In this document: positions 664-39,923 of the stretch, piece by piece | Layout of the letters: each line of letters opens with the position of its first letter | How positions within the stretch are numbered: position 1 is the stretch's first letter | Source of the DNA: Bacillales bacterium UBA6380 | Lineage (GTDB): Bacteria; Bacillota_I; Bacilli_A; RFN20; CAG-826 | Direction of reading: 5' to 3' | Assembly (NCBI GenBank): GCA_002438785.1 | Contig: DJQS01000007.1 | Coordinates: 6,194 to 70,193, forward strand | DNA length: 64,000 nt | Notes under the pieces: model-generated | What the model was told of the DNA's origin: nothing | The model's database searches: none | The model's input: the letters and a program-made list of their open reading frames with translations, nothing else | Translations under genes and position numbers: made by a program

Positions 664-985
664 TGCATTTACTTTAAAGGTAACTCTTTTCAATGTCGAA
701 ACAAGTGCTGATTCTTATGGTAAGCAAAAATATCAAATAAATGAAGAGAGTACCATCATGGCAATGGAAACGAATATCACTAGAAGCGAGTTTTATGAAG
801 CAAGTAGAAGTGGCTATAAGATTTCTCGTGTGATTAGAATAAATAACTTCTTGTATAAAGGTCAAAGGTTTATTGGCATAGATAAGAAAATCTATAAAGT
901 GATTAAAACTTACCAGTTATCGCATTTGCTCGAACTCACCTTAGAAAATACTTCATTAAAGGAATTAGAAGGATGGCTAGTTTAG
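656..985 (+). CDS. phage head-tail adaptor / head closure protein
   Basis: 109 aa, translationally coupled in the head-to-tail joining block. Confidence 0.35.
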   Translation: MINAFTLKVTLFNVETSADSYGKQKYQINEESTIMAMETNITRSEFYEASRSGYKISRVIRINNFLYKGQRFIGIDKKIYKVIKTYQLSHLLELTLENTSLKELEGWLV

Positions 986-1359
986 ATGACTTTGTTGATG
1001 AGATTTCTTCTTTAATTGAGAGCTCATTAGATTTTGATAATGAAGTGGATGAGATTATGGAAGATACCGCTAGAGATATTATTGAAGATATTAAAAGCAA
1101 TGCTCCAATTGGTAAATCTAAAGAGCACTTAAAAGATAGTTTCACTTATTTAAAAGAAGGAACGAAAGTGCATAAAAGCATAACGATCTATTCTTCGAGT
1201 AAAGGAAGACTTGTCCATTTAATTGAGTTTGGCTTTATTCATCGAAGCGGTAAGTTTGTTAATGCTCGACCATTTTTAAGACCTGCTTATGATAAGAATG
1301 AACCGAAGATGGAAACTAAAATCAAGGAGGCAATTAAGAATGCAACTAGAAAATCTTAA
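973..1359 (+). CDS. phage tail component, HK97 gp10-like
   Basis: 128 aa, position between adaptor and major tail protein. Confidence 0.35.
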   Translation: MASLDDFVDEISSLIESSLDFDNEVDEIMEDTARDIIEDIKSNAPIGKSKEHLKDSFTYLKEGTKVHKSITIYSSSKGRLVHLIEFGFIHRSGKFVNARPFLRPAYDKNEPKMETKIKEAIKNATRKS

Positions 1360-1687
1360 AGCAATATTAGAGAGTATCACACCTACCTTTTATGGAAGTT
1401 ATAGTCCATCGATGGTTGAAGAAGAGCTCTCTAATTTTATTGTTTTCACTCGAATAAATAGCTCATTTAAGACTTATTTTGATGATAGGGAAGCAATAAG
1501 AGTGACACATTATCAGGTCAATTTAATCACTATAGATTTAAAGACCATGGATACTCTTTCAAAGAAACTCGAAGAAACTCTTAAACAAAATGACATATCT
1601 TTTACTCTTACAAGCGAATATATAAACGATAACGACACAATAAATACAGTCTATGAAATAGAAATGGAGGAATTTATAGATGGCTAA
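1340..1687 (+). CDS. phage tail completion / tail terminator-like protein
   Basis: Start refined to ATG 1340, 8 nt after AAGGAGG (1325-1331); the ORF-track start at 1289 overlaps the upstream gene. Confidence 0.35.
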   Translation: MQLENLKAILESITPTFYGSYSPSMVEEELSNFIVFTRINSSFKTYFDDREAIRVTHYQVNLITIDLKTMDTLSKKLEETLKQNDISFTLTSEYINDNDTINTVYEIEMEEFIDG

Positions 1688-2243
1688 TAAAATAACTTTT
1701 GGATTACGTAATGTTCACTATGCTTTGGCAACTAATGATGGTGAATCTTGGACTTTTGCTACACCTAAAGAGTTAATCGGCGCTCAGGAATTCTCAACTG
1801 AGATGGTTGGTGGAACAAGTCAAGTCTATGCTGATGATAAGATATTTCACACTTTAGTTTCTAATAGTGGAGCAACCATTACATTAAAATTAACTGAACT
1901 ATCTGACGAGTTTAAAAAGGATATTTTTGGCTATGTTGAAGATAGCAATAAAAACTTAATTGAAGTCACTAATGCTGAAGTGAAGACTTTTGCTTTAGGT
2001 TATGAGATTCAAGGTGATAGTAAGGCTAGGAGAGTGTGGTATTTCTTATGCACGGCAACCCCAGTCGGACAATCAACGAAATCGAAAGCCGATAGCATTG
2101 AAGCAAATAGTGTCTCTTTAACTATTACTGCTCGACCAATTGAAATCAACGATAAAGAAGTCTTAAGAGTTATCGCTTCAAAAGGTGATACAAACTATGA
2201 GAACTTCTTTAAAACTGTAACCTTACCAACTTTAGGAGCTTAA
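1680..2243 (+). CDS. phage major tail protein (TP901-1/phi13-like family)
   Basis: 187 aa, N-terminus MANKITFGLRNVHYA... typical of siphovirus major tail proteins; lies just upstream of chaperone and tape measure. Confidence 0.55.
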   Translation: MANKITFGLRNVHYALATNDGESWTFATPKELIGAQEFSTEMVGGTSQVYADDKIFHTLVSNSGATITLKLTELSDEFKKDIFGYVEDSNKNLIEVTNAEVKTFALGYEIQGDSKARRVWYFLCTATPVGQSTKSKADSIEANSVSLTITARPIEINDKEVLRVIASKGDTNYENFFKTVTLPTLGA

Positions 2244-2247
2244 GTCT

Positions 2248-2592
2248 ATGGAAAAAGTAGTAGAAATTGGTAGTGAAAAGCTCGTTTTAAGATCATCTCT
2301 TTACTCCCTTATCAATTATCGTAATAGGTTTGGAAGCGAGCTCTTTAACGACATCAAAAAAATAGAAGAGGTCAAAGAAAATAATATCACAGAAGTCTTG
2401 GAAGTAATTTTTAGGATCGTTTTCATTTTAACTAATCCTAAAGATGGTGAGACTTTTGATGATTTCTTGAAGAGATTTGATTTAGGAATTTTAAGTGATG
2501 TTAGCTTGCTTCAAAGACTTTCAAATGCGATTGTTGAACTCTTAAAACCCGATAACAAAGGAAATAAAGGAGAGACGTTTCGAAGCGAGTAA
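2248..2592 (+). CDS. tail assembly chaperone (gpG-like)
   Basis: 114 aa acidic protein directly upstream of tape measure; overlapping alternative-frame ORF downstream (see next feature). Confidence 0.5.
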   Translation: MEKVVEIGSEKLVLRSSLYSLINYRNRFGSELFNDIKKIEEVKENNITEVLEVIFRIVFILTNPKDGETFDDFLKRFDLGILSDVSLLQRLSNAIVELLKPDNKGNKGETFRSE

Positions 2593-2773
2593 GCATTCGT
2601 TTACAGCAAATATAATTTTTAATTTAGGTAAATTAGGCTTATCGATTGATGATAGCAGGTACTTTGATATTTCTACATATGTTGAGCTTATCCAAATTGA
2701 GCGAGAAATACATGGTGAAGAAAGTGGAAATAGAAGAGCAAGTCAAACAGATATCGATAGGTTTTTTATTTAG
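2567..2773 (+). other. open +1 frame overlapping the 3' end of the chaperone gene (candidate G-T frameshift extension, about 69 codons)
   Basis: Frame 2 is stop-free from 2567 to TAG 2771-2773, ending 13 nt before the tape measure ATG; classic position of the gpT-like extension. Confidence 0.3.
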
Positions 2774-2785
2774 AAAGGAGGTATT

Positions 2786-4657
2786 ATGGCAGAGACTATA
2801 AGAGGAATAAACATCAAATTAACTCTCGATGGTAAAGATTTACAAAACGAACTTAACAATATTAAAGCCAATTTAAAAGAACAGCAAAAAGATTTAAAAG
2901 CCATCAATACCTCTCTTCGCTATGATTCTTCTAATGTCGATTTATGGAAGAAAAAACAAGAGACATTAAACTCTATTTTAGAAACCACGAAGAAGAAACT
3001 TCAAAATCAAAATGAACAATTAGAAAAAGCTAAAGAAGCCTTAAAGGTTGGCGAGATATCAGAAAAAGAATATAACCAGTTAAGAAGAAACGTTGAATAC
3101 ACGGAAGCTGACATTTCAAAGTTAAATAATGAGCTTAATAAAACAAGTGAGAAAATTAACTCTTTAGGTAGTGTTGACCTTTCTAAACTTTCTAAATTAG
3201 GCACGAACTTAACTAAATATGTGACTGCTCCTCTCATTGGTGCATTTACAGCTTTAACGACCTTGACTGTGAAAAGTGCTGAAACTGCTGATGAATTAGG
3301 TGATTTAGCTCAAAACTTAGGAATCTCAGTAAAATCACTTCAGGAGTGGAACTATGTAGCTAAACTTTTAGCAGTCGATAACGAGCAACTTCAAAAGGCT
3401 TTTATCAAAACGAATTCTCTTTTAGGTGATTTAGCAAGTGGTAATACATCAACTGCAACATCAGCTTTAGAACAGCTAGGAATAACCTATGATAAATTAA
3501 AAGGGAAGAGTGTAGATGAAGCCTTTAATATTATCCGTAATGCCCTATCTAGTTTAGAAGATGAAACTTTAAGAGTTGGCATAGCTAATGATATTTTTGG
3601 CGATAAAATTGGCACTGATTTACAACAACTTTTATCCGCTTCAAGTCAAGAAATAGAGAATTTTAAAAATGAGTGTCTTTCTTTAGGGATTATTACTGAT
3701 GAAGAGGTGAGAAAAAGTGCAGCATTCAACGATGAATTAGATCGAGTGAAACAACAGCTTCAAACATTAGGTGTCGAAGTCGCTCAAATTTTACTTCCTA
3801 TCTTAACTGAGTTTTTAGGTTATGTAAAAGAGAGTCTTATTCCAAAAATCAGTGAATGGGCAAATAAGCTAGCCAACATGAATGACACTACAAAAAAGAC
3901 CATTTTAGTGATTGGTGGAATGATTGCGATTGTTGGTCCAGCGATTAAGATAGTGACAGCTTTAGTGCCTGTAGTAAAAGGTTTATCGACTGCTTTAACT
4001 AGTGTTGGAACAAGCGGATTTTTTGCTGGAGAAGGAATAAATGCTGCCACTTTAGGAATTGGTGCTTTAATCGCTTTACTCGTAGTTGCTTTATCTCAAT
4101 CAGAGACTTTTAAAGAGATCATTGGAGAAATTGGAGAGCTATTAGTTCAAATCATCGAACCTATCTGGGACATCATTGAGACAGTTGGAGAAGCCTTAAT
4201 GCCAATTATTGATTTGGTAATGGAAGTAATAAATACATTAATGGGACTTTTACAGCCTTTATTAGATACGCTTTTGTTACCAATTAAAGTCGTACTTGAT
4301 GTTATAGGAAGAATAATCCAAGCCTTAAATCCAGCCTTAAAACTGATAGCAAATGTAATTCAAAGAGTAATCGCACCAGTCCTTGAGATGCTCTATGCGA
4401 TTTTAGAACCTATTTTTTCTATATTAAACGCCATCATTGAAGCGGTTGAGTGGATTATTGATCATACTGTCGGCTGGCTTATGGATCTTTTTGATTCAGC
4501 AGTTGATTGGTTTAAAGATACATTTCATCTTGGTGGTAATTCAAATAGCTCAAATCAAACTACGAATAACACAACAAATAATGTCACGATCAACACGAGT
4601 TCTAGTGAATTTGATGTCGATTCAGTCAATGAAGCCTTAGGAGGTAATTATCTATGA
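2786..4657 (+). CDS. phage tail tape measure protein
   Basis: 623 aa; N-terminal coiled coil, central hydrophobic/Gly-rich segment, AGGAGG RBS; canonical position after chaperone. Confidence 0.7.
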   Translation: MAETIRGINIKLTLDGKDLQNELNNIKANLKEQQKDLKAINTSLRYDSSNVDLWKKKQETLNSILETTKKKLQNQNEQLEKAKEALKVGEISEKEYNQLRRNVEYTEADISKLNNELNKTSEKINSLGSVDLSKLSKLGTNLTKYVTAPLIGAFTALTTLTVKSAETADELGDLAQNLGISVKSLQEWNYVAKLLAVDNEQLQKAFIKTNSLLGDLASGNTSTATSALEQLGITYDKLKGKSVDEAFNIIRNALSSLEDETLRVGIANDIFGDKIGTDLQQLLSASSQEIENFKNECLSLGIITDEEVRKSAAFNDELDRVKQQLQTLGVEVAQILLPILTEFLGYVKESLIPKISEWANKLANMNDTTKKTILVIGGMIAIVGPAIKIVTALVPVVKGLSTALTSVGTSGFFAGEGINAATLGIGALIALLVVALSQSETFKEIIGEIGELLVQIIEPIWDIIETVGEALMPIIDLVMEVINTLMGLLQPLLDTLLLPIKVVLDVIGRIIQALNPALKLIANVIQRVIAPVLEMLYAILEPIFSILNAIIEAVEWIIDHTVGWLMDLFDSAVDWFKDTFHLGGNSNSSNQTTNNTTNNVTINTSSSEFDVDSVNEALGGNYL

Positions 4658-5475
4658 GAAAGTTTTATTTACAAAATGAGAAAGGTGAGATTTTTTATTT
4701 TGATTACCATTCTAAGGTTCTCATTTCCAGCGTCTCAGGTTTAGGCTTTGAAAAAGAAATCACTTACTTTGATTATGATAATCTCTATAAGAAAATCGAA
4801 GAGAAGAATCCTCAACAAGAGATTGCTTTTAAACTTGTATTTTTAGAAAATTATAAGGGTTTTAAAGGGTTTTTGAAATTTATTGAGGATTCTAGTGAAC
4901 TTGTTTTATATTACACGAGTGTCGACACTAAATACACTTATGTTGAGATTGAATCCTTATCAAAAACTCAAATTGAAGGTGGAGCATTGACTTCGGATTT
5001 AAAGATGAAGAAGCTCTCTTATTGGTATAAAGATGTCGTTAGCGATGTAGTAATCAATGTCTCTAGAACTGGTAAGATTTATCCTTTTACTTATCCTTAC
5101 ACTTATAGCAACTCTTCAAAAGGAAAATTAGAGATTACAAATAATGGATATGCACCAGCTCCTTTAAAGATAATTATTGAAGGTGATGTGAATAATCCAG
5201 AAGTGATTGTTACTAAGGACGGAATTGAAGAAGCTAAGTTAAAAATATATTATGAGTCATCTAATTGTAGGATAGTGGTTGATGCCTTTCCTACTCGACA
5301 ACAAATCACCATCACTGAAAATGAAGAAACCATCGATGCTTATGAATATCAAGATTTCTCATGTGATAACTTTATCTTTTTAAGTAGAGGTAAGCATGAG
5401 ATTACTTTTATTCCAAACACTGAGACTACGCCTAAATGCTCAATTACGATGATTGAAGGATACTTAGGAAATTAG
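4654..5475 (+). CDS. distal tail protein (Dit-like)
   Basis: 273 aa, ATGA overlap with tape measure stop; size and position typical of Dit. Confidence 0.5.
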   Translation: MRKFYLQNEKGEIFYFDYHSKVLISSVSGLGFEKEITYFDYDNLYKKIEEKNPQQEIAFKLVFLENYKGFKGFLKFIEDSSELVLYYTSVDTKYTYVEIESLSKTQIEGGALTSDLKMKKLSYWYKDVVSDVVINVSRTGKIYPFTYPYTYSNSSKGKLEITNNGYAPAPLKIIIEGDVNNPEVIVTKDGIEEAKLKIYYESSNCRIVVDAFPTRQQITITENEETIDAYEYQDFSCDNFIFLSRGKHEITFIPNTETTPKCSITMIEGYLGN

Positions 5476-11584: not shown

Positions 11585-12886
11585 ATGGAAGAAAAAAGCA
11601 TTGAAAAAAGACTCGGTATGCCGTCCTTAGTTCATAAGAAAAAAGTCGCTGCATATTGTCGAGTCTCAGTTGAAAAAGATGCCATGCTCCATTCCTTATC
11701 GAACCAGGTATCCTATTATCAAGATTACATTGCTAAAAACGATGAATGGATCTATGTAGGAACTTATGCAGATGAAGGAATAAGTGGCACTAAGGTTAAT
11801 AGACCTGAATTCAATCGCCTTATTGAAGATTGTAAGGCACATAAAATCGATATGATAATTACAAAGTCAATATCGAGATTTGCTCGAAACACCACGCTCT
11901 TACTTCAAACGACAAGGCTTTTAAAAAAATTAAATATCGATGTCTATTTTGAAGAGCAGAAGATTCATAGTCTATCTAACGATGGTGAGTTAATGCTTTC
12001 TTTACTGGCTGGATTTGCTGAAGAGGAAGCTAAGTCGATGTCAAATAATGTAAGATGGAAAGTAAATAAGTTTTTTGAAGACGGTAAGATTTGGGGACTT
12101 CACAAAATATATGGCTATGATGTTATTGATGGCAAGCTAGTGGTGAATCAAAAAGAAGCTGAAGTCATAAGACTCATTTATCATCTTTATTTAGATGAAG
12201 GACTAGGAACTCATCAAATAGTCAATAGACTTGACGAACTCAATATCCCTGCTCCAAAAGCTAATGGATGGATACGATATAGTGTGCGAAATATTTTAAG
12301 ATCCATCATTTATACTGGCGAGTTGATGCTTGGTAAATATTCTCAAGAAATGAACCCTATATCACACCATAAAGAAAACGATGGAAGATACCCTTTGTAT
12401 TATGTTGAAGAAAGTCATGAGCCAATTATCAGTAAGGAACTTTATGAAAGAGCCCAGGCAACATTTAAACAAAGGAATGAAAAGTATATACCTACCAAAG
12501 AGAATAATTACTCGCCTTTTGCTGGTTTAATTAAATGTGCTAGTTGCGGAAAGAATTATCTTAGAAAGAAAAATAAGTATCGCATCTATTGGATATGTGG
12601 TCAGTTTGTTGTTGGAAAAGGTAAAAAGTGTAATCAAGCCTTATCACTTAGAGAAGATACGCTTTATGAACTTACAAAACTCGCTCTAGATATAGATGAA
12701 GTAACTGAAAAGAGTCTAGAGCCATTAGAACAAATTATGGTTCATGATTCAAAAGACCTAGATTTTATATTCAAAAACGGAGAAAAGAAAACCTATCATT
12801 TTGAGTTTAAGTCAAGAAAAGAATCGTGGACGGAAGAAATGAAAGAAGAAGCAAGAAGAAGGGGGTTATTAAATTATTATGCCTAA
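11585..12886 (+). CDS. large serine recombinase (433 aa)
   Basis: Resolvase catalytic N-terminus AAYCRVSVEKD with Ser nucleophile; recombinase and zinc-ribbon domains (CASCGKNY...C); AAGGAGG RBS. Confidence 0.85.
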   Translation: MEEKSIEKRLGMPSLVHKKKVAAYCRVSVEKDAMLHSLSNQVSYYQDYIAKNDEWIYVGTYADEGISGTKVNRPEFNRLIEDCKAHKIDMIITKSISRFARNTTLLLQTTRLLKKLNIDVYFEEQKIHSLSNDGELMLSLLAGFAEEEAKSMSNNVRWKVNKFFEDGKIWGLHKIYGYDVIDGKLVVNQKEAEVIRLIYHLYLDEGLGTHQIVNRLDELNIPAPKANGWIRYSVRNILRSIIYTGELMLGKYSQEMNPISHHKENDGRYPLYYVEESHEPIISKELYERAQATFKQRNEKYIPTKENNYSPFAGLIKCASCGKNYLRKKNKYRIYWICGQFVVGKGKKCNQALSLREDTLYELTKLALDIDEVTEKSLEPLEQIMVHDSKDLDFIFKNGEKKTYHFEFKSRKESWTEEMKEEARRRGLLNYYA

Positions 12887-14480
12887 AGTAACTAAAATAG
12901 AAGCTACTATAAATCCAAAAACAAGACTGCCAAAGAATCAATTAACAAAAAGAAAAGTTGCAGCCTATGCTCGAGTATCAACCGATAGCGATGAACAAGC
13001 CACATCCTATTCAGCTCAAGTTGATTATTATAGTCGCTATATTAAATCTAGACCTGATTGGGAGTTTGTTGATGTTTATACCGATGAAGGAATCAGTGGA
13101 ACAAATACTAAAAATAGAAATGGCTTTAATAAAATGATCGCTGATGCCTTAGATGGTAAAATTGACCTGATCATCACAAAATCAGTCTCTAGATTTGCTC
13201 GTAATACAGTCGATAGTTTAGTTAATATTAGAAAACTAAAAGAACATAATGTTGAGTGCTACTTTGAAAAAGAAAATATCTATACTTTCGATTCTAAAGG
13301 AGAGTTATTAATTACTTTAATGTCGAGTCTAGCTCAAGAAGAATCTAGGTCGATAAGTGAAAATGTAACTTGGGGACAAAGAAAGAGATTTGCTGACGGT
13401 AAGTTCTCGATGCATTTTAATAACTTTCTTGGCTATAAAAAAGGTCCGAATGGTGAAATTGAAATTGATGAAGAAGAAGCCAAAACTATCAGAGTAATTT
13501 ATAGATTGTATCTTGATGGACATTCTATCGTTGAAATTGCTAAATATTTAGATGAAAACAATTATGGTAAGCCAAATAAAAATAAAGGAACAAAATGGTC
13601 GATTTCAACTGTAAAAGGTATCTTAACTAATGAAAAATATAAAGGAGATGCCTTGCTTCAAAAAAGTTTTACTATCGATTTTTTAGGACATAAGACAAAG
13701 AAAAATGAAGGCGAGATTCCTCAATATTATGTTAAAAATTCTCATCCAGCCATCATACCTAAAGAAGAGTGGGAAATGGTACAAGATGAGATGAAAAGAA
13801 GAAAAAAAATAGGTTCAAAATATCAATTTGTCAATTCATGCTTTAGTAGTAAGCTCATATGTGAAGATTGTGGAGCGTTTTATGGTAGAAAAGTGTGGCA
13901 CTCTACTGATAAAGGAAGAAAAGTAATCTGGCAATGCAATAATAAGTTTAATCTTAGCAAAGAAAAAAGATGCAAAACTCCTCATTTGAGTGAAGAAGAA
14001 ATTAAATCAATGTTTATGAAGGCATACTTTCAACTAATGGATAAGAAGGGAAAGTATATAGATGATTTAAATGAAGTTAAAAATGCTCTTTGTGATATCG
14101 ATGAACTTGAAGACAAAATTAGAGAAAAAGATAAAGAAATAAAAACGGTTATTAGTGATGTTGAAAGTTTAGTGAAAAGTAATGCTAGTAAACCTCAAGA
14201 TCAGCTTAGTTATTATAAAAAGTATGCAGAACTAGAAGAAAAGTATAATTTATTAAAAGCTGATTACGATAAACTAGTAAGCCAAAAAGAAGAAAAAAAT
14301 GCAAAAGCAATAAGAATAGAAAAGTTTATTCAAGACATAAAAAATCATAAAGAAGAGATGGTAGAGTTTAATGAACCGCTCTGGAACTTGCTAGTTGAAA
14401 ATGCTATCGTTCATAAAGACAAATCCATAACGTTTAGGTTTCGAAGCGGTGTTGAAATTAAGGTTGAAGCTGAGGAGTGA
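12879..14480 (+). CDS. large serine recombinase (533 aa) with C-terminal coiled coil
   Basis: AAYARVSTDSDEQ catalytic motif; ICEDCGAFY...C zinc ribbon; long coiled-coil tail; 8-nt overlap with upstream recombinase. Confidence 0.85.
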   Translation: MPKVTKIEATINPKTRLPKNQLTKRKVAAYARVSTDSDEQATSYSAQVDYYSRYIKSRPDWEFVDVYTDEGISGTNTKNRNGFNKMIADALDGKIDLIITKSVSRFARNTVDSLVNIRKLKEHNVECYFEKENIYTFDSKGELLITLMSSLAQEESRSISENVTWGQRKRFADGKFSMHFNNFLGYKKGPNGEIEIDEEEAKTIRVIYRLYLDGHSIVEIAKYLDENNYGKPNKNKGTKWSISTVKGILTNEKYKGDALLQKSFTIDFLGHKTKKNEGEIPQYYVKNSHPAIIPKEEWEMVQDEMKRRKKIGSKYQFVNSCFSSKLICEDCGAFYGRKVWHSTDKGRKVIWQCNNKFNLSKEKRCKTPHLSEEEIKSMFMKAYFQLMDKKGKYIDDLNEVKNALCDIDELEDKIREKDKEIKTVISDVESLVKSNASKPQDQLSYYKKYAELEEKYNLLKADYDKLVSQKEEKNAKAIRIEKFIQDIKNHKEEMVEFNEPLWNLLVENAIVHKDKSITFRFRSGVEIKVEAEE

Positions 14481-15464: not shown

Positions 15465-15607
15465 TCTAAAAAGATTTTTGATAAAATTTTCGTTTTTATG
15501 ACAAATTATTCTCTAATGTACTATAACAGATGATATGAAACAAAATCTCTAAACAAAAAGACATCTGATTTATAATTTTATTGGACTAATTATAAGGAGA
15601 TGTCTAT

Positions 15608-16278
15608 ATGAATATTTTAGCATTAAATGATACAAAATCATCAAGTACTTTTGAGACTCGTAAAAACGTGATAAACGCAATCTTGAATTTACATTGGTCT
15701 TATAATAAGGCTTGTGGCTATTATCATGCATCAAGAATTTCTATCTACCGTTTCGTTAAAAAAATAAAAATAATCCATGTGATGAAAGCATCGCATTATT
15801 TTCTCATAAGCCAAAAAGTCCACATCCTAATGCATATAATGATGAATTAATACAGAAAATTTTAAACAAGCATAGGAGGTGTCATGGTAAATCAAAATTT
15901 GAAATATGGTGTGATTTTCAATCTTCTATTGGAGATTTTAAACCTTCATATATGACAATTTTGCGTACTTTTAGAAGAAATAGCGAAGATTTTCAATACA
16001 AAACAAATAAAAAGAAAAAACATGATAGACCATACGATACTCCGAAATTGCCTGGCGAAAAATGGCAAGTCGATGTTAAATATGTGCCCAAAGAGTGTAA
16101 AACCCAAGATCTAGAGGGAAGATTTTATCAATATACAATTCTTGATGAATTCAGTAGAAAACGTTTTCTTTATTTTACCAATGAACATTCAATGTATGAA
16201 ACTGTGAAATCGCTTGAAAGAGCATTGAATTTTTTAGACTATATCTCTGCTGGAATACGAACTGATAATTGGTTTTGA
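15608..16278 (+). pseudogene. disrupted IS30/IS481-like (rve/DDE) transposase: HTH fragment plus integrase-core fragment
   Basis: 15608-15850 is an HTH N-terminal piece; 15952-16278 carries GEKWQVDVKYV ... IRTDNWF (RTDNGxEF-type rve hallmark) truncated right after; frame breaks in between. Confidence 0.5.
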
Positions 16279-16449
16279 ATTTTTAGATAGAGCAAAAAGA
16301 GAGAAAGATGGGAAAACTTTGGTTCTATGAAATAAAGTCTGTATGAAAAAAACAGCATACACATTTAATTTCACAGATTTACAGTCTTTTAAAATGAAAA
16401 GGCCTCTATAATTTAAGTGTTCAAAAGCAATAATAGGAGGTCTTTTCAT

Positions 16450-17013
16450 ATGGATTTTAACACATTACTTTTAAGACTTGGGATAAGTTCAGAAAATTTT
16501 ATTAATAAAGAAGGTATTGCTATACCGATTGAAGGAGGAATGCTTTACGAGGTAGAACAACAAAAAATAGTTAGAAAATGTCCATATTGTGAATGTGGTG
16601 AATCGGTAATAATTGGTTACTATTATACAGAAACAAAATGCTCAGAATCAGAAAATTTTAAGGATATCTTGAGAATTATGCGAGTAAGATTCAGTTGCAA
16701 AAAGTGCGGTAAAATATTTTCTCCAAAAATAAATGGAATTGAAAGATATGCAACAATTAGTAATCAAGTTGAAAGATTCATAATAAATGATTTCGTAAAG
16801 CCATTAACTTTTGCTCAAATAGGCAAAAGATATGGCTTGAAAAAGCAAAGAATAATTCAAATTTTTGATGAAAAAGTTAAATATGTTCCTAGAAGAAAAA
16901 TGCCGCGTATTTTATGTATAGACGAAATTAAATTTTCAGAAGAATTTGATCAAAACTACTGCTGCGCCTTGTACGATTTTGAGAAAAGAGAAATCGTAGA
17001 TATTATTAAGTGA
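16450..17013 (+). pseudogene. ISL3-family transposase N-terminal fragment (zinc-finger plus HTH), truncated
   Basis: MDFNTLLLRLG...CPYCECGESV... matches ISL3 N-terminal region; about 188 aa versus about 430 aa full length; AGGAGG RBS; no DDE domain follows. Confidence 0.5.
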
Positions 17014-17351
17014 TAATGTCATAATGCCACTTCAATTTCGTTAAGTTTGCACATCAACTATCCTTTCTTTTTAGTCCAAGTTTTATCCACACCATAATTG
17101 GTAAAAGTATATATACTTTTTCAGTAACCATAGGGTGCTGGTTAAATGAATTGTATTTATACATTTTTATAAAGGAAATTGTCTATATAATTGGCTTAAG
17201 TTTAGTAGAATAAACGACTTGTTTTTTAATATTTTTTGGTCATACAGGTTTCATTTTTGTTATAAAATAATATTTTTGAACTTTAAGTCCCAAAACTCTT
17301 GAATAAAGAATTATCTTATGATACATTTTTAAAAAAGATAGGAGATTAATC

Positions 17352-18581
17352 ATGACCAAACTTATAAATCGTGCTGAATACTTAAAACAACTGATTGAGA
17401 ATAAGGATGTTGATTTAGTAAAAATAATAACTGGTATTCGCAGATGTGGGAAGTCTTCTTTACTAGATTTGCTTCATGAATACCTTTTGCAAAATGGTAC
17501 GCCAGGAGAAAATATTATTCATATGAATCTAGAATCATTACAATATCGGAATATTATTGATTATTTTAGTTTTTATGATTACGTAGCAAAACATATTGCA
17601 AAGAGTGGAAAAACGTATTTGATTTTTGATGAGCTACAGGTAATTGAGCATTGGGAAAAAGCTGTTGAATCATTTCGTTTGGATTTTAATGTGGATATCT
17701 ATATAACAGGCTCTAACGCTTACTTATTATCTTCGGAATTATCGACCTTGCTTTCGGGAAGATATGTGGAGATACGTATGTTGCCATTATCTTTCAAAGA
17801 ATTTTTGAATTTTTATAATTTTGAAGTATCTATCAGTATTGAAGAAAAATTTCAGAAATATCTTCAGTTTGGGGGAATGCCTATTTTAAGAGAATATCAA
17901 TTCAATGAGACGAGAATTAATCAGGCACTTGAAGGCATTTATTCAACTGTTGTTTTAAAAGATATTTTACTCCGCAATCCACAGGCTGATCAGTCAATTT
18001 TAGAAAAGCTTATATTGTTCCTTTGCTCGAATATTGGAAGTATAACTTCGCCAAATAGTATTGGAAATGCCTTATCTCATGAAGGAAATATAATCAAAGG
18101 AAAAGATAAGAATATTGCCAGAAAGACGGTCGATAAATATCTTGATATGCTTCATCAAGCATTCTTTTTCTACTCAGTAAGACGATATGATGTGAAAGGT
18201 AAACAATTTTTGAAAACTTTAGAAAAGAATTATATTATTGATTTAGGATTTCGAAATATGTTATTAGGGTATCGAGATGTGGATAGGGGACATATATTAG
18301 AAAATGTTGTATATTTGGAGCTTATTCGAAGAGGTTACAATGTATATATTGGTAAAATTGGAGAACTTGAGGCTGATTTTATTGCTGAAAAACCAAATGA
18401 AAAACTATATATTCAGGTTACGGAGAGTATGCAATTAATAGAAACACGAGATCGTGAATTAAAACCACTAAGAATCATTAGAGATAATTATGAAAAAATT
18501 ATTCTATCGATGGATAGAAGTTATGTAACTTCTTATGATGGAATTAAGTCATTAAATTTAATTGATTGGCTACTACAATAG
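17352..18581 (+). CDS. AAA+ ATPase (AAA_14 plus DUF4143-type)
   Basis: Walker A GIRRCGKSSLL, Walker B LIFDELQ; 409 aa architecture typical of the widespread DUF4143 ATPase family. Confidence 0.7.
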   Translation: MTKLINRAEYLKQLIENKDVDLVKIITGIRRCGKSSLLDLLHEYLLQNGTPGENIIHMNLESLQYRNIIDYFSFYDYVAKHIAKSGKTYLIFDELQVIEHWEKAVESFRLDFNVDIYITGSNAYLLSSELSTLLSGRYVEIRMLPLSFKEFLNFYNFEVSISIEEKFQKYLQFGGMPILREYQFNETRINQALEGIYSTVVLKDILLRNPQADQSILEKLILFLCSNIGSITSPNSIGNALSHEGNIIKGKDKNIARKTVDKYLDMLHQAFFFYSVRRYDVKGKQFLKTLEKNYIIDLGFRNMLLGYRDVDRGHILENVVYLELIRRGYNVYIGKIGELEADFIAEKPNEKLYIQVTESMQLIETRDRELKPLRIIRDNYEKIILSMDRSYVTSYDGIKSLNLIDWLLQ

Positions 18582-19156
18582 TTCTATTATCCACGCGGAT
18601 AAAATATAATTATTTCAAATTTAAATATTGTATTTGAGATAACATTTTTAAATATTCTTAAATCAATTATTAAGTTGATGAGTTATAGTTACCTTTTATT
18701 TTACAATGAATATAAAGTATAAAAACTCTCGGTAGAATCAGAATTTGTTATAGGTATCATATCACTGGTAGAAAAGTCGTTTTATATTAATTAGATAGAA
18801 TGTGGCATGTTGTTACTTAAATTTTTATATGATTAAAGATGTCAAAATTAGTCATAAATGTTCGATGTAAAGTGAATTTTTTTATCATCGAGATTAGAGA
18901 AATATAGAATCAGATGAATTTATTATCGAATTAAATAAATACCTAGAATGGTTCAAAAATAAGTGAAGATTGAATTATCTTTCTATAAATAATTTCACAT
19001 TATATTAGTGGCAGATGTTGTCAGAAAAATATCTGCATTTCCTTTCCAACAATTTCAGTATGATATTTATAGGAAAATGCATTTAGCTATATCAATAGTT
19101 GTTTAATGTACAAAAGTCGTTATCAGACTTATTTTATTAATTGTAATGACTTAATA

Positions 19157-19279
19157 ATGCAACTCAAAAAAGTTAAGCATGAAAATACTTTAGCAAGAAG
19201 ACTCAAACACTTCATCTCTTATAGTATTCTTATTATTGATGAAGTCGGATTTCTTCTTATTTGTGCAGAAAAATCTTAA
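19157..19279 (+). pseudogene. IstB-like (IS21 helper ATPase) fragment
   Basis: Short ORF MQLKKVKHENTLARRLKHFISYSILIIDEVGFLLICAEKS contains the IstB Walker-B-like LIIDE(L/V)G(Y/F) motif; ends in a stop with further fragments out of frame. Confidence 0.3.
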
Positions 19280-19412
19280 CCTATTATTTCAGCTAACACC
19301 AAGAGGCAATTTATCGACATTGGTGAGTGTTATTTTCCAATAATAGTTAAAAATATATTTATTTTTTAAAAAAGCAACTTAACCTATGTTGATTGAATTA
19401 AGTCGTTTTCAT

Positions 19413-21515
19413 TTATTTAAATTTTGAACTTTTAAACAATTGATTTCTATTAATTGAATGATTGGTTTCGTCAAGCCAATATTCTTTACCATTTCTTGAT
19501 CCGATTTGAATAAATCCTGCTGAAGTACTTAAGCCTGTATTACCTTCTATTTTTGAGTAGAAGGTATAGTTTTCTTTAAATATAGCTCCATCATTTGTTT
19601 CTTCTATAATCCCATCTTCTAAAAGCTGATCATAGAGTTCATCGAATGAGTGATTTTCATGAGGTAATCGATAGTTTTCAATATCTGATCCTTTTTGTAC
19701 TTCAACCGCTCCATTATCTAAATAAAATAGAGCTTTTGCTTCAAGGCCTGGATTAGAAAAAAACAAATGTATATGTATAATTTCAAGATCAGAAGAAGAT
19801 ACTGCATAATATGGAAACAATGATATGACTTTATTAGTTAAATTAGCGGTTCTATCATCAATTTCTTTTGTAGTCCAATCTGGTAATTTTAAAATATCTT
19901 CATTTAATTTAAGATGACTAGTAGAAGAAAATAGGTCTACTTTATATTCCCAGATATTATTTTGCGCTTTAGAATTGTCTTTTTTAGAAATAAGTGTAAG
20001 ATTTCCTAATCTATTTCTTTGCATTAAATATTCATCCTCTGTTAAATTTAATTTAGTAAGCCATTTTTTACCATCTTGCGGCATTAAATGTTCCACACTG
20101 AGCTCTTTTAGATCAACAGGCGCAGAATTGTTAATGTTCTCAATTTTTTCTAAAACGATTCGTAATTGAGAACGTAAGATGTACATGTTATCTGTCCATA
20201 AGTGTTCTCTTAATTCCTTATCGTCAGGAACATATGATGATTTTCCTTTATTTGCATTTATCAAATGCTTTCTTAAGGCTATATCAATATTTGAATAATC
20301 GGGCTTACAAGAAGAGAGTGTATCATTTAAAACAGTAGGGAATATTCTTGTAATAGAAGATGTATCTAATGAGCATAATGCTCTTCTTATTAAGTATGAA
20401 TTGACAATTTTTATGAGATTTGCAAAAACATCATCACTTATTAGTAAATTTTGATTCATTTTATAAAATTCAAGAATAAGAGGAGCTGGCATTTCTGAAT
20501 CAATTTTTCTATAATCAATTAATTCATTTTTTATTGGATTTTTGAATTTTGTAATATCTAAATAATAAAGGTCGTTGTATCCTTTAGCATAATCTTTTAT
20601 ATCTGAAAGAATATCTTTAGGTGATAATCCGCTTTTTTGCTCTTTTTCATAGTATTCTTTGAATGTTGAATAAACAGAGTTGATATTACAAAGTCGTTTA
20701 TATTTAATTGATAAATAGATTCTAAAGAAACCTTCTAGTTTTTTGGCATTGCTATTTAAATTTTTTTCTATTTCGTTCCAATAATTTTTGTAATATATTT
20801 CTTGATCATCACTTGGAATAGTCATTAGTATATAATTTCTAATTAAATCTGATGCAGTTAATTTAGCTCCTGTTGAGTTAATACTTTCGAATATTTTTTG
20901 AGCGTTATCGTCTGAAGAAAGTGGAACACACACTAAGTATAGATTGTCCATTGCCATAAGTATTTGATTAAAAGAAAAACCATTTTTATTTAAGTCATTT
21001 ATTCTATCTTTAGTATAAATATAATTTTTGTATATGTTTGAATCAGTATTTTTAATATTATTTAAATCTTTATTGATTATTTGCTGATAAACATCATCAT
21101 CATTAACCAGTGGCTTTAGTTTGAATTTTAGTTTATCTTGTACAAATTGATTATTTAGATATTGATTCTCTAATTGTGAAGCTAAAGTAATATTGCCAGG
21201 GTCTTTTGTTTCATTTAATAAATCTCTTATTGCATACAACATAAGAAAAGTAGTGGTTAATCTTTGCTGACCATCTATTACAGAAAATTCTCTTGAAAAA
21301 GAATCTAATGGTGTATCTAAATAAATCAGAATACCTAAAAAATGTTTATCATACTTATTTTTTAATACTGCACAAAGATCATCAATATACTGTCTCACTT
21401 CTTTATTTGCTGTCCATGTGTAATTTCTTTGATACACTGGAATTACAAATTGACTTCCTACACTATTCCTTAATAATTCTAATAGACCTGTTCGTCTTGG
21501 TGGTTGATTTGTCAT
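19413..21515 (-). CDS. DUF262/DUF1524 (GmrSD-like type IV restriction / anti-phage) protein with extra C-terminal domain
   Basis: 700 aa; DGQQR motif (VIDGQQRLTT) near the N-terminus; His-Me finger motif SVEHLMPQ in the second half; about 130 extra C-terminal residues. Confidence 0.75.
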   Translation of the reverse strand: MTNQPPRRTGLLELLRNSVGSQFVIPVYQRNYTWTANKEVRQYIDDLCAVLKNKYDKHFLGILIYLDTPLDSFSREFSVIDGQQRLTTTFLMLYAIRDLLNETKDPGNITLASQLENQYLNNQFVQDKLKFKLKPLVNDDDVYQQIINKDLNNIKNTDSNIYKNYIYTKDRINDLNKNGFSFNQILMAMDNLYLVCVPLSSDDNAQKIFESINSTGAKLTASDLIRNYILMTIPSDDQEIYYKNYWNEIEKNLNSNAKKLEGFFRIYLSIKYKRLCNINSVYSTFKEYYEKEQKSGLSPKDILSDIKDYAKGYNDLYYLDITKFKNPIKNELIDYRKIDSEMPAPLILEFYKMNQNLLISDDVFANLIKIVNSYLIRRALCSLDTSSITRIFPTVLNDTLSSCKPDYSNIDIALRKHLINANKGKSSYVPDDKELREHLWTDNMYILRSQLRIVLEKIENINNSAPVDLKELSVEHLMPQDGKKWLTKLNLTEDEYLMQRNRLGNLTLISKKDNSKAQNNIWEYKVDLFSSTSHLKLNEDILKLPDWTTKEIDDRTANLTNKVISLFPYYAVSSSDLEIIHIHLFFSNPGLEAKALFYLDNGAVEVQKGSDIENYRLPHENHSFDELYDQLLEDGIIEETNDGAIFKENYTFYSKIEGNTGLSTSAGFIQIGSRNGKEYWLDETNHSINRNQLFKSSKFK

Positions 21516-25768: not shown

Positions 25769-25907
25769 AAATTTCTCCCTTTTAGAGAATTTTATTAATT
25801 TTTGGAGTGAGTATTCTATCAATAATCTGTAAATTAAATGTAAATAACTTATATAAATATATATTTTATGTAATTAAAATTAATATAAAATAATGTTAGA
25901 GGTTAAT

Positions 25908-26306
25908 ATGAAAAACATAAATGTTGTTGCTGCAATAATTATTAAAAATAATAAAATATTCATTACACAAAGAGGATATGGAGAATTTAAGGATTATTGG
26001 GAGTTTCCGGGTGGCAAAATTGAAAATGGAGAAACTAAAGAAGAAGCCCTTATTAGAGAAATAAAAGAAGAGCTTAATACTAATATTACCGTCAAGAAAT
26101 TATTAACTATAGTCGAGTATGATTATCCTAAGTTTCATTTAACTATGTCATGTTTTATATGTAATTTTGAAGATAATAATTTTAATTTAGTCGAAGCTGA
26201 AGACTATAGATTTATAGATGTTAATGAATTAGATTCGATTAATTTTTTACCAGCTGATATTTTAACTATTAAAAAAATAAAGCAATATTTTAATGAGAAT
26301 CAATAA
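25908..26306 (+). CDS. NUDIX hydrolase (MutT-like)
   Basis: Nudix box GGKIENGETKEEALIREIKEELN; start refined to MKNINVV. Confidence 0.7.
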   Translation: MKNINVVAAIIIKNNKIFITQRGYGEFKDYWEFPGGKIENGETKEEALIREIKEELNTNITVKKLLTIVEYDYPKFHLTMSCFICNFEDNNFNLVEAEDYRFIDVNELDSINFLPADILTIKKIKQYFNENQ

Positions 26307-29271
26307 TTAATGGCTTACTTATTAAGTAATTATATAGTTCATTTTTGACTGGTATTTCTAATTTTAACTTAAATTGTACGACTTTTGTTTTAATTATATT
26401 TCCGTTTTCTTTTTCTATTGGACATCCATCAAGTTTTACCTGTCCTAAATAATAAAATGAATTATCTTTATCTTTACTTTCCCCAAGTTTATTTATAACA
26501 CTATCTCTTTTTATAAATAATAGTACCCTACCATCATTATTAAAAATATTAATTAATGATTTAATTTCTTCGCTTTTTAATGTTCTATTACTTTTTGAGT
26601 CCCATAAAAAGGTATTTGGGTTTAAAAAGATATCTTTATAATTTATTGAAGCGTCATCATCTAAATCTTTATGATAAGTAACAAATATTGGAACAATATT
26701 AAGATTTTTAAATATCTTATACCCATAAATAGTAGATTCTTCATTTTTTGGATTATTTATTAAATAACATACATCCTTACGTGTATATTTTTCATATAAA
26801 ACAAAATTATTGATTGAATTATCGAATTTTTTAAAATAACGATGATGTGAGTACAAAGAATAATTGATGATTTCAAGAAGATATTTCTTAAAGCATTTAT
26901 TATTTAAAGCTAGTAAGAATTCTTTAGTTAATATAATTTCTTTATTATCATTTATTTTACATATTTGAAGTGGCTTTAATTTTGAAGAATTGTTTAATCC
27001 AAAAGAAGTATTTAAAACACTTAAAATACTATTTTTTATTATAGAGTCATAACAATATTTGATCTTTTTAAAAGTACCTAATTTATTTAAGATATCTGCA
27101 AAATCCAATTCTTTTTTATTAAAAATTAACATTTTAATTAATAAAGCTTCATATATTCTTAACCCACTTCCAATGTTTCTCGATAAATAAATTAGAGTGT
27201 CTTTTTCATTAATATTTAAGATTTCTTTTTCATCATTAATTGTAGATAAAAAATTATAATAAGAATCATAACCATTTTGATAAAAATCTAAAAAAGAACG
27301 TCCAGATAAGTTTCCAAGTAAGTCAAATTCGATAAGAGATGGTATCTTGCCTAATCTATTTTTAATATTAATATATTGTTCTTTTATTCTTCTTTTTTCA
27401 GTATTATTTATACTAGCTAAAGATTCAATTATTCGTTTTGTTGATATTTCATCAAATTGAATAATACTTGAACCTGGTAATAGAGGATGAAGATCTTTTT
27501 CACTATGTTTTTGTCCAGAAGTTTTAGTTGCAAATGTTTCTGGAATTAAAAAATTAGATTGATAATTTCCAATAAAATCAATGACAGTTAGATATTCTTT
27601 ATTTATATCTAAACGTAAACCTCTACCAAGTTGTTGAATAAAAATAATAGAAGACTTTGTAGGTCGAAGAAAAATGACTTGATTAATTGAAGGTATATCA
27701 ATACCTTCGTTAAAAATATCACAAGTAATTATCATTTCTAAATATTTTTTATTAAGATCATTTTCTTCTAATAATGATATCGCTTCATTTCTTTTATTAA
27801 GTGAATCTTCTCCTGATAGAAAAATACATTTGATGCCCTTTTGGTTTATTTTTATGGATAACTCCTTGCCTTCTTCTTTATTTGAAACAAATAATAAACA
27901 TTTTAATCGAGGACCAGAATATCCATAGTATCTAGAATTTTGAATGATTTTATTAACTCTTTCATCACATGTTAAATATTTAAAACTAGTTTTATCATCA
28001 ATTGTTATATTATCAATAACTAAATCAGAAACACCAAAATAGTGGAATGGGACGAGCATATTAGCTTCTAAAGCATCATATAATCTTATTTCATATAAGA
28101 TGTTATTATCAAATATTTTATATATATCATATCCATCTAATCTATCTGGAGTTGCTGACATTCCTAAAATATATTTAGGTTTAAAATAATTTAATATATT
28201 TTGATATAAAGTATTTTCGCCAATTCTATGACATTCATCGATAACAATAAAATCAAAAGCAGTTGGATCAAATTGGTTATAATATTTATCTTTACCTAAT
28301 GTCGAAATATTAGAAAATATGAATTGTGCATCATTAAAATCGTGATTATTACCACTTAATAATTTCATTTTTATTTCATTACCAAATACTTTTTTATAAG
28401 ATTCCAAGGATTGTTTTAAAATATTATCTCGATGTGAAATGTATAATAATTTATTTATTTTAAATTTAGTGATGCTTTTAATAGCAAAAGCAGAAGCAAA
28501 TGTTTTTCCGGTTCCAGTAGAAGAGATTAATAAGCCTTTATTATCTCCTTTATTAATTGATTCATTTAATCTATTTATAAAAACCATTTGCATCGAATTA
28601 GGCTTAAATTGTTCATATTGTACTTCATTATTTAAAATATGAGCTTTTATCTTTAAAGAAGATTCGTATTCTTTTTGATATTGATCTAATATTAAAGACA
28701 AAGGAGTCGATAATTTCCAAATTCTATCATATTCATTTAATATATCCTTAATTATTTTTCCATCTTTATTACCAATTATTAGATTATTCCATTCATTATT
28801 TGTTGTTAATGCACTTTGGGTTAAATTGCTACTTCCTATTATTGCTTTATATTCATTATTTTTAAATTTAAAGATATATCCTTTTGTGTGGAATCCAATA
28901 TTATTTGATGAATTTATATAAAAAAGTCTAACATCAATATTTGAATATTGCTGAAGTTCTTTTAAGGCTTTTGGTTCTGTAAAGCATAGATAATTACTTG
29001 TTATGACAGTTCCATGAACCTGTGGATTTCTATTTTGTAATTCTTTAAATATTTCTTTTAATAAACTAAGACCAGAGTCTGTAATAAAGGCAATTGAAAA
29101 ATGAAATTCTTCACATGTTAATAAATTTTCTTTTAAAGAATAAAATACTTTTTTGATATTATCTTTTTCATTAACGTTGTAAATAAATTCGGGTATGAAA
29201 TTAGATTCGACTACCGAATTGTTGTTTAGATATGCATTTATTAAATTATTTAATATCTCGTTATTTTCCAT
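26290..29271 (-). CDS. PLD-family (HKD) nuclease plus SF2 DEAH-box helicase with long C-terminal domain (possibly DUF3427-like)
   Basis: 993 aa; HTKGYIF...IGSSNLT (HxK ... GSxN) near res 128-150; Walker A LLISSTGTGKT; DExH FIVIDECHRIG; helicase-C motifs (FIQQLGRGLR); about 390 aa C-terminal region without recognisable motif. Confidence 0.75.
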   Translation of the reverse strand: MENNEILNNLINAYLNNNSVVESNFIPEFIYNVNEKDNIKKVFYSLKENLLTCEEFHFSIAFITDSGLSLLKEIFKELQNRNPQVHGTVITSNYLCFTEPKALKELQQYSNIDVRLFYINSSNNIGFHTKGYIFKFKNNEYKAIIGSSNLTQSALTTNNEWNNLIIGNKDGKIIKDILNEYDRIWKLSTPLSLILDQYQKEYESSLKIKAHILNNEVQYEQFKPNSMQMVFINRLNESINKGDNKGLLISSTGTGKTFASAFAIKSITKFKINKLLYISHRDNILKQSLESYKKVFGNEIKMKLLSGNNHDFNDAQFIFSNISTLGKDKYYNQFDPTAFDFIVIDECHRIGENTLYQNILNYFKPKYILGMSATPDRLDGYDIYKIFDNNILYEIRLYDALEANMLVPFHYFGVSDLVIDNITIDDKTSFKYLTCDERVNKIIQNSRYYGYSGPRLKCLLFVSNKEEGKELSIKINQKGIKCIFLSGEDSLNKRNEAISLLEENDLNKKYLEMIITCDIFNEGIDIPSINQVIFLRPTKSSIIFIQQLGRGLRLDINKEYLTVIDFIGNYQSNFLIPETFATKTSGQKHSEKDLHPLLPGSSIIQFDEISTKRIIESLASINNTEKRRIKEQYINIKNRLGKIPSLIEFDLLGNLSGRSFLDFYQNGYDSYYNFLSTINDEKEILNINEKDTLIYLSRNIGSGLRIYEALLIKMLIFNKKELDFADILNKLGTFKKIKYCYDSIIKNSILSVLNTSFGLNNSSKLKPLQICKINDNKEIILTKEFLLALNNKCFKKYLLEIINYSLYSHHRYFKKFDNSINNFVLYEKYTRKDVCYLINNPKNEESTIYGYKIFKNLNIVPIFVTYHKDLDDDASINYKDIFLNPNTFLWDSKSNRTLKSEEIKSLINIFNNDGRVLLFIKRDSVINKLGESKDKDNSFYYLGQVKLDGCPIEKENGNIIKTKVVQFKLKLEIPVKNELYNYLISKPLIIDSH

Positions 29272-39894: not shown

Positions 39895-39923
39895 AATATT
39901 AATATATAGTCATTGGAGGGAAT

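Follow-up and report, generated by a model that had tools for sequence, protein, structure and literature searches.

DndI, as which Orf5 was identified (PMC4198939), is part of the IscS-DndBCDE-DndI system (PDB 9jfl) and combines a DUF262 domain carrying a DGQQR motif with a DUF1524 HNH domain, and it has NTPase and nickase activities. It is 594-596 aa in length, has no DUF4357 tail and is encoded beside dndBCDE. HEC-06 is an experimentally validated single-protein GmrSD-like defence which needs its DGQQR and EH motifs; its mutants Q79A, R80A, E471A and H472A, at positions equivalent to those of the protein studied here, lose phage defence (Payne et al. 2024, bioRxiv 10.1101/2024.01.29.577857). 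BrxU and Eco94GmrSD, Type IV enzymes directed against hmC/glc-hmC DNA, belong to the same fold class and show the same motifs, although both lack DUF4357 and BrxU is embedded in BREX. The architecture in which DUF4357 follows a GmrSD core was already published in 2015 and 2017 (Machnicka et al. PMC4619093; Jablonska et al. PMC5714182), and DUF4357 is found also on GIY-YIG nucleases and McrB homologues.

We compared these systems with a gene pair located in the window, which is the whole stretch of 64 kb of DNA that was analysed. Both open reading frames were returned as originally predicted, and the coordinates of all features are given in Table 1. The 700-aa protein has the same domain order as the published GmrSD-DUF4357 proteins, namely DUF262, helical linker, DUF1524 and C-terminal DUF4357, with no structural difference. 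More than 5,500 homologues of it could be scored, most of them of ~700 aa in length and with all three Pfam domains, and the genome collection contained no relative above 52% identity. The nuclease is intact but unremarkable, and the family to which it belongs, anti-phage nucleases made of a single protein, is very large and has been described before. The novelty of the locus had been overestimated in the original prediction, since the architecture is present in PMC4619093 and PMC5714182 and the neighbouring ATPase is the catalogued PDC-S01.

Table 1. Coordinates of the features in the window
Feature	Position	Strand	Details and basis
Prophage tail genes	973-5475		
Two adjacent large serine recombinases, prophage end	11585..14480	+	Pfam Resolvase + Recombinase + Zn_ribbon_recom
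Prophage end, junction with sequence common to a strain without the prophage at this site	15515..15516	.	comparison with L097
rve-type (DDE) transposase fragment, frameshifted and truncated	15608..16278	+	two ORFs; Pfam rve
Truncated ISL3-family transposase	16417..17013	+	N-terminal 198 aa; tblastn
AAA_14 + DUF4143 ATPase, candidate PDC-S01	17352..18581	+	409 aa, AGGAG ribosome-binding site; PADLOC
IstB (IS21 helper ATPase) fragment between the convergent genes	19106..19279	+	57 aa; Pfam IstB_IS21
GmrSD-family gene, DUF262 + helical linker + DUF1524 + DUF4357	19413..21515	-	700 aa, full-length ORF
C-terminal DUF4357 module, alpha/beta	19416..19793	-	residues ~575-700
DUF1524 / GmrSD_C His-Me finger nuclease domain	19833..20228	-	residues 430-561, Pfam 2.6e-18
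DUF262 / GmrSD_N ParB-like NTPase domain	20829..21473	-	residues 15-229, Pfam 2.3e-32
NUDIX hydrolase, PADLOC candidate PDC-S07	25893..26306	+	1.9e-49
PLD nuclease + SF2 helicase + DUF3427, second Type IV-like enzyme	26290..29271	-	993 aa; PADLOC mREase_IV 4e-186, Pfam

Pfam, PADLOC, alignment and fold comparison agree with the earlier assignment to the GmrSD/BrxU/SspE type, a ParB-like NTPase combined with a His-Me nuclease. GmrSD_N scores 113 bits against a cut-off of 33.2 bits and GmrSD_C 66.7 bits against 23 bits (Pfam), and chance cannot account for Pfam matches of this strength. All three motifs of DUF262, QR(xxxW), DGxQR and FxxxN, are present: QR at residues 29-30 (nt 21426-21431) within the stretch Q29-R30-N-Y-T-W34, DGQQR at residues 81-85 (nt 21261-21275) and FxxxN as FESIN at residues 209-213 (nt 20877-20891). 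Their columns are invariant across 68 homologues and the DGQQR region aligns with IDGQQRLTT of PDB 20yv. In DUF1524, the (D/E)H that closes beta1, the loop Asn and the helix Asn of the His-Me finger are all present; the EH of EHLMPQ is E475-H476 (nt 20088-20093), and the other predicted catalytic residues are N505, D513-N514-S515 and N519. These motifs align with the nuclease motifs of SspE and 20yv, and their columns are likewise invariant in 68 homologues. Translation and alignment thus find both DGQQR and EHLMPQ, the motifs named beforehand, to be intact. The two catalytic domains are joined by residues 235-460, an all-helical linker with pLDDT mostly >85 in the AlphaFold model, and the ATG is preceded, at a distance of ~9 nt, by an AAGGA ribosome-binding site.

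In PADLOC the protein has full-length profile matches to Orf5 (DndI) at 8e-104 and to HEC-06 at 1.6e-59, both over residues ~11-567; the HEC-06 profiles, of ~560 positions, leave the tail uncovered. Among PDB folds, the full model is closest to DndI 9jfl (1.1e-12) and BrxU 7p9m (6.7e-04; Foldseek), and its structural alignment with the latter shows 12% identity. By family as well as by fold the top match is DndI, which is phosphorothioate-sensing, and not a classical Type IV enzyme, and this counts against a Type IV reading. No NCBIfam model matched either the GmrSD protein or the ATPase.

The original prediction also noted an extra C-terminal domain of about 130 aa and tentatively called it DUF4357-like, and both statements hold. 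The last 130 aa are modelled with a mean pLDDT of 91.7 and contain 6 strands and 4 helices (AlphaFold), they are not low-complexity, and pN in the tail is 0.10-0.23 against a pS of 0.60-0.84. From model and sequence we regard this region as a real folded domain under purifying selection. A conserved motif, T-x-L-S-x-S-A...G-S-R-N-G-x-x-Y-W, runs through the tail, and the NG(W/K)xYW motif of DUF4357 is kept in the tail family. The tail itself reaches 23.1 bits (whole protein) or 27.6 bits (isolated tail) against PF14267, below the gathering threshold of 38.4 bits. All 25 aligned family tails match DUF4357 (PF14267; best 1.6e-11), two homologues exceed the 38.4-bit cut-off (P0133, 51.2 bits; P0124, 47.8 bits), and most homologues of ~50% identity carry a precomputed PF14267 annotation. 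By these profile matches the tail belongs to DUF4357. In this clade the tail is divergent, being 27-50% identical to the wider family compared with ~50% for the core. When the tail alone was used in a word-indexed search for homologues, two short ORFs only were returned, which was uninformative on architectures of other kinds. HMMER, run with the tail over all 1.84 billion representatives, gave 29 matches, and nine of the ten scanned against Pfam are GmrSD-type proteins or fragments, so that a query with a single sequence does not extend as far as the GIY-YIG or McrB proteins. The tenth (P0141) is an unrelated repeat protein.

The neighbouring gene encodes an AAA+ ATPase of the DUF4143 class, as had been stated and as Pfam (AAA_14, 2.5e-32; DUF4143, 3.9e-16) and PADLOC confirm. 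By sequence it is a typical AAA_14/DUF4143 member and the already catalogued candidate PDC-S01, matching PDLC04787 end to end (2e-151; its residues 1-409 correspond to positions 6-408 in a profile of 412). According to PMC12988326, members of the PDC-S01 family (COG1373) combine an ATPase with a fused PD-(D/E)XK domain, and the family ranks fourth in frequency among defence calls in prokaryotes. The one homologue tested gave no protection against T4, T5 or T7. Walker A (G28-x4-G33-K34-S35) and Walker B (D93-E94) are invariant columns. The nuclease-like motif reads E317...D342...Q355-V-T357, in which E317, D342 and Q355 are present while the subfamily has a threonine for the lysine of (E/Q)xK, T357 being invariant in 18 close homologues. 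Comparison of the ATPase with the PDB found no solved relative, hence no nuclease structure against which the triad could be aligned. PDC-S01 is a candidate defence family.

Fragments of mobile elements are real at this locus. The rve match (5.7e-10, Pfam) lies at 15952-16278, and the preceding ORF at 15608-15850 is split from it by the loss of one nucleotide at 15764, judged against the 223-aa ORF of L097, a strain without the prophage at this site. By tblastn the second fragment aligns with annotated transposases of ISL3 / IS1476 at 29% identity and 85% coverage, with E values as low as 9e-11, and the third matches IstB_IS21 profile positions 121-166 of 238 (1.5e-08). They are located upstream of the ATPase and between the genes, whereas the sequence past the 5' end of the GmrSD gene yielded no IS remnant; therefore the pair is not bracketed by IS debris as had been proposed. 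Strain L097 matches 15516-20436 of the window at 99.4% and has ssb-rpsR-gdpP-rplI-dnaB in place of the prophage to the left of the junction. The prophage is the only presence/absence difference seen at the locus.

The surroundings of the nuclease support a small four-gene defence island beside the prophage, in agreement with the setting originally suggested. Four PADLOC-family genes lie within 14 kb, adjoining the prophage junction; the second Type IV-like enzyme and the NUDIX candidate are 4-8 kb from the nuclease gene, and the NUDIX gene shares 17 nt with the PLD-helicase gene at the 3' end of the latter. The immediate neighbours of the GmrSD gene are the IstB fragment, the PDC-S01 ATPase and a small membrane protein, with no methylase or Hma helicase. 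In contrast to HEC-06, which is embedded in Hma (helicase-methylase-ATPase) systems, the gene here stands alone. Its neighbourhood is not conserved: relatives at 71-87% identity are found with an AlwI RM system, AAA_13, Hachiman or MobL/T4SS elements, and these changing defence contexts fit an autonomous mobile defence gene.

We consider it probable, from sequence and by analogy, that the gene product is a defence nuclease of the GmrSD family, a single polypeptide working on its own, with the DndI / HEC-06 branch as its nearest and a Type IV-like mechanism. NTPase and nuclease activity, modification dependence and the role of DUF4357 are inferred. In analogy to BrxU, SspE, DndI and HEC-06, the N-terminal ParB-like DUF262 would bind and hydrolyse NTP through the QR / DGQQR / FxxxN pocket, and the NTP cycle would gate the C-terminal DUF1524 His-Me finger, which would nick or cut invading DNA. 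The most likely target would be phage DNA with a modification absent from the host (Type IV logic).

The protein could instead serve a phosphorothioate (PT) system as an effector of the DndI/SspE type, sensing host PT marks and nicking unmarked foreign DNA, in dependence on dnd/ssp modification genes elsewhere in the genome. Orf5 as the best PADLOC family, DndI as the best solved-structure match and the match of SspE to the nuclease motif speak for it. However, the Orf5 set of PADLOC consists of 17 broad HMMs covering GmrSD-like proteins generally, dnd/ssp genes are absent from the ORFs scanned across the window (phage, pst, uvrA, lgt and transporter genes) and from the gene lists of seven close-relative loci, and DndI is toxic without PT so that an orphan copy would harm, which makes a PT effector unlikely. 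A decaying, non-functional remnant in an IS-scarred region would be suggested by the three transposase/IstB fragments nearby and by orthologues of 99.7% nucleotide identity in two other samples, which carry the null allele Q42* and, in one of the two, also D513N in the nuclease motif. These alleles indicate that the gene is dispensable and sometimes lost. In the window, however, the ORF is not truncated, its invariant motifs are all in place and its ribosome-binding site is good, the gene is identical to copies on four contigs, and pN is far below pS in all domains (dS is saturated in two of the three close comparisons, leaving pN/pS and one dN/dS estimate as usable), and we find decay in this strain improbable. 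The genes might also form one two-gene system in which the ATPase senses or translocates and GmrSD cuts, as they are neighbours with 831 bp between them, PADLOC assigns each to a defence or candidate family, and the two are found together again, at 99-100% identity, in several metagenome samples that appear to represent the same species. Against this, the genes are convergent with the IstB fragment inside the gap, HEC-06 and BrxU work alone, six places with a 78%-identical ATPase have no GmrSD, and in 87 related GmrSD loci no homologue of AAA_14/DUF4143 type occurs within 10 kb. The ATPase is therefore not a partner of the nuclease, and a two-gene system, already largely refuted, is rejected on the neighbourhood data of the 87 loci as very improbable; the earlier doubt about a shared operon of convergent genes was justified. 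Relatives of the ATPase adjoin a small resolvase and an HTH gene, without GmrSD. The 831-bp spacer had no plasmid match, and promoter and terminator scans stayed at chance level. The ATPase is an independent gene, merely co-resident in the island.

For the tail of the putative stand-alone nuclease, we propose a conserved folded accessory domain which most likely adds DNA/substrate recognition or regulates the nuclease. About 12 related loci have a different, unclassified tail of 145 aa on a core that is 45-48% identical, which favours tail swapping. A more specific proposal is that DUF4357 would adopt a RAMA/SAND fold, read modified DNA and so set the target specificity of this GmrSD branch, a swappable C-terminal sensor retargeting one core; the target could then be adenine-modified or otherwise non-cytosine-modified phage DNA. 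We regard this as a long shot, and a DNA-reader role of any kind is weakly suggested. Pfam RAMA is touched by only two of the 25 tails (E 0.049), the tail shares 8-16% sequence identity with RAMA (CcrM C-terminus 6pbd, MPND 7ydt) and SAND domains, and the DNA-binding surfaces of RAMA and SAND are basic whereas the tail is acidic. For the RAMA domain of MPND, a 6mA preference is absent in vitro (PMC9963953). Weak DEP/wHTH-like matches of the tail in a profile search of PDB sequences are probably spurious and were set aside. It is conceivable, though we think it rather doubtful, that the tail does not read DNA and is an autoinhibitory, oligomerisation or phage-protein-sensing module. The DUF4357 family is consistently acidic (median pI 4.6, net charge -9), Foldseek of the tail against the PDB gave no significant match (best E 0.41), and a DNABIND prediction did not favour DNA binding (PMC5714182), all in line with such a module.

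The locus can be annotated with confidence: one gene codes for a Type IV-like restriction enzyme of the GmrSD family that ends in DUF4357, the other for an independent PDC-S01 candidate ATPase, and both lie in a defence patch of four genes at the prophage junction. The role of DUF4357 is a family-wide question and not peculiar to this locus. If DUF4357 is a RAMA/SAND-like DNA reader, its repeated presence on nucleases of the GmrSD, GIY-YIG and McrB types would be accounted for, and there would be a starting point for predicting the specificity of Type IV enzymes.

Both open reading frames of the islet, encoding a GmrSD-family nuclease and an AAA_14/DUF4143 ATPase, lie where the original prediction had placed them (see the table). 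Pfam matches of the nuclease comprise GmrSD_N at residues 15-229 (2.3e-32) and GmrSD_C at residues 430-561 (2.6e-18). The DGQQR motif and the His-Me finger that had been claimed are found at residues 81-85 and at E475-H476, together with the DUF262 motifs QR (29-30) and FESIN (209-213) and the His-Me finger residues N505, D513-N514-S515 and N519, the full set of diagnostic nuclease residues being intact. These positions occupy invariant or near-invariant columns in an alignment of 68 homologues and can be aligned with SspE and one solved DUF262 protein (PDB).

Genes of the islet and of its defence-related neighbourhood (window coordinates)
Feature	Position	Strand	Details
AAA_14/DUF4143 ATPase gene	17352-18581	+	409 aa, good ribosome-binding site
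GmrSD-family nuclease gene	19413-21515	-	700 aa, good ribosome-binding site
NUDIX gene (PDC-S07)	25893-29271 region, downstream in the window		PADLOC 1.9e-49
993-aa PLD-helicase-DUF3427 protein (mREase_IV)	25893-29271 region, downstream in the window		PADLOC 4e-186

The top PADLOC models for the nuclease are Orf5 (8e-104), the former name of DndI (PMC4198939), and HEC-06 (1.6e-59), each spanning residues about 11-567, and the sole significant PDB matches of a full-length AlphaFold model (pLDDT 80) are DndI (9jfl, 1.1e-12) and BrxU (7p9m, 6.7e-04). These matches mark the core as a standard GmrSD-family enzyme, lying on the DndI/HEC-06 side of the family. Experiments have validated HEC-06 as a single-protein defence, and its DGQQR and EH mutants are inactive (bioRxiv 10.1101/2024.01.29.577857). 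The nuclease matches DndI in its DUF262/DUF1524 fold, but dnd/ssp genes were found neither among the ORFs scanned across the 64-kb window nor at the loci of relatives with 71-87% identity. Since DndI without phosphorothioation also harms its host (PMC11662687), we infer that a Type IV, modification-dependent reading is to be favoured over PT-sensing. The family is distributed in Clostridia, Erysipelotrichaceae, Bacteroidales, Fibrobacter and others, and the nuclease is an additional member of this large, catalogued family.

The C-terminal tail of about 130 residues had tentatively been called DUF4357-like, and it is indeed a DUF4357 domain. In the whole nuclease the Pfam match, at residues 630-686, is sub-threshold, its 23.1 bits falling short of the 38.4 required. 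Each of the 25 family tails aligned has a match to PF14267 (best 1.6e-11), some relatives exceed its gathering score, and most of the roughly 700-aa homologues (about 50% identity) carry a precomputed PF14267 annotation and the NCBI name 'DUF4357 domain-containing protein'. The entire module of roughly 106 residues (584-689) also aligns to the C-terminal end of PDC-S14, a PADLOC candidate. As predicted, the tail is a folded extra domain and not of low complexity: modelled in isolation with the family alignment, it has a pLDDT of 91.7, six strands and four helices. In three close orthologues its pN is 0.10-0.23 against a pS of 0.60-0.84, and in a single unsaturated comparison dN/dS is about 0.13 for the tail and 0.08 for the core; purifying selection thus acts on the tail, which nevertheless evolves faster than the core. 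The GmrSD plus DUF4357 architecture was already published in 2015 (PMC4619093) and 2017 (PMC5714182), and other DUF4357 carriers include GIY-YIG/T5orf172 nucleases and McrB homologues. Two short ORFs consist of the DUF4357 part only (95 aa, 88% identity to the query; 98 aa, 70% identity, found on 44 contigs) and could represent either stand-alone domains or genes that were called too short.

At about a dozen loci (L031, L033-L040, L042, L043, L049) whose GmrSD core shares 45-48% identity with the query, DUF4357 gives way to another, unclassified tail of 145 aa (the last ~145 codons, containing ...KMYPQGDKEKYWFGYR...HYHIVIF...LLSKP...); three examples scanned gave no Pfam match. The presence of a different tail at the same position on a related core suggests that the GmrSD C-terminus is a swappable module.

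RAMA domains contact dsDNA via the backbone and have been proposed as 6mA readers, but MPND shows no 6mA preference (PMC9963953). RAMA parallels DUF4357 in being fused to nucleases, namely GIY-YIG and Mrr in prokaryotes (PMC11037411). Resemblance of the tail to RAMA/SAND is a lead and not a result; the link is weakened because Foldseek with the tail returned nothing significant (best E 0.41), Pfam RAMA touches only 2 of 25 family tails (E 0.049), a tail sequence profile picked up neither RAMA nor SAND chains among PDB sequences, and members of the domain family are acidic (net charge -9, median pI 4.6). Only the last 40 residues, bearing a conserved SRNGxxYW motif, are basic. A regulatory or protein-sensing module is a live alternative, and the function of DUF4357 is the single real uncertainty, of modest interest.

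The ATPase (Pfam AAA_14 2.5e-32, DUF4143 3.9e-16) covers the PADLOC profile PDC-S01 end to end (2e-151). PDC-S01 is unvalidated, yet reported to rank fourth among defence calls in prokaryotes (PMC12988326); the sole homologue put to the test failed to protect E. coli from T4, T5 or T7. Homologues of 409 aa with 78-83% identity number in the hundreds and come from Gemmiger, Lachnospiraceae and Bacilli. DUF4143 is classified as a PD-(D/E)XK domain (PMC3424549). Walker A and Walker B do not vary among the homologues, nor do E317, D342 and Q355. Where the (E/Q)xK motif would have its lysine there is a threonine (Q355-V-T357, nt 18414-18422), conserved without exception in 18 homologues of 72-87% identity; catalysis by the C-terminal domain may be atypical or absent.

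The possibility that ATPase and nuclease form a two-gene system was rejected. The genes converge, the 831 bp that separate them contain an IstB fragment, and an AAA_14/DUF4143 homologue lies within 10 kb at none of 87 other GmrSD-relative loci, in agreement with the original view that a shared operon is unlikely. Close relatives of the nuclease instead neighbour an AlwI RM system, an AAA_13 gene, Hachiman and conjugative-element genes. Conversely, GmrSD is absent in all six places (L091-L096) with a 78%-identical ATPase, which invariably has a small, divergent serine resolvase on one side and, downstream, an HTH_3 gene and then a NAD-dependent DNA ligase. Sequence left of the resolvase varies from contig to contig, which suggests carriage by a mobile element. 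The ATPase is an independent, catalogued candidate gene.

Window positions 1 to about 15515 are a prophage end with tail genes (HK97-gp10-like, tail tube, tape-measure-like and Dit proteins), an AP2-domain protein and two adjacent large serine recombinases. The metagenome contig L097 matches 15516-20436 at 99.4% identity and carries ssb-rpsR-gdpP-rplI-dnaB (L097 1-8162) in place of the prophage; therefore the islet is chromosomal, outside the prophage, which is polymorphic between strains. All 31 differences from L097 fall inside an rve transposase fragment (15555-16035), which may reflect gene conversion between IS copies or an artefact of assembly; identity is 100% over the following 4.4 kb (16036-20436), which takes in the ATPase and the GmrSD gene's 3' half. 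The transposase debris is genuine (frameshifted rve fragment, ISL3 N-terminus, IstB fragment); the predicted bracketing of both genes did not hold, since part of the debris precedes the ATPase and the rest lies in the gap that separates the two genes.

The defence-island setting is borne out by four PADLOC-family genes in 14 kb, and the original interpretation of the islet, whose observation is confirmed, was essentially right. In a Prevotella MAG (L023 9983-15826), PLD-helicase (27% identical to that of the window) and NUDIX (66%) genes come immediately after a GmrSD-DUF4357 gene and share its strand. The window, too, has all three types of gene within 10 kb; NUDIX and PLD-helicase may constitute a module. 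From about 30 kb onwards the window holds housekeeping genes (pst, uvrA, lgt). Just downstream of a tRNA-Thr (39286-39359; region 39286-45105), ORFs of 408 and 1108 aa have no Pfam match at E <= 1e-05 and no PADLOC match.

Two independent metagenome assemblies from other samples contain nuclease orthologues (L099 3314-5416, L100 2290-4392; 99.7% nucleotide identity) with a Q42* change (codon 42 CAA>TAA), the former additionally bearing D513N in the nuclease motif. These copies look like natural null alleles, and such Q42* orthologues are the presence/loss dynamic typical of defence genes.
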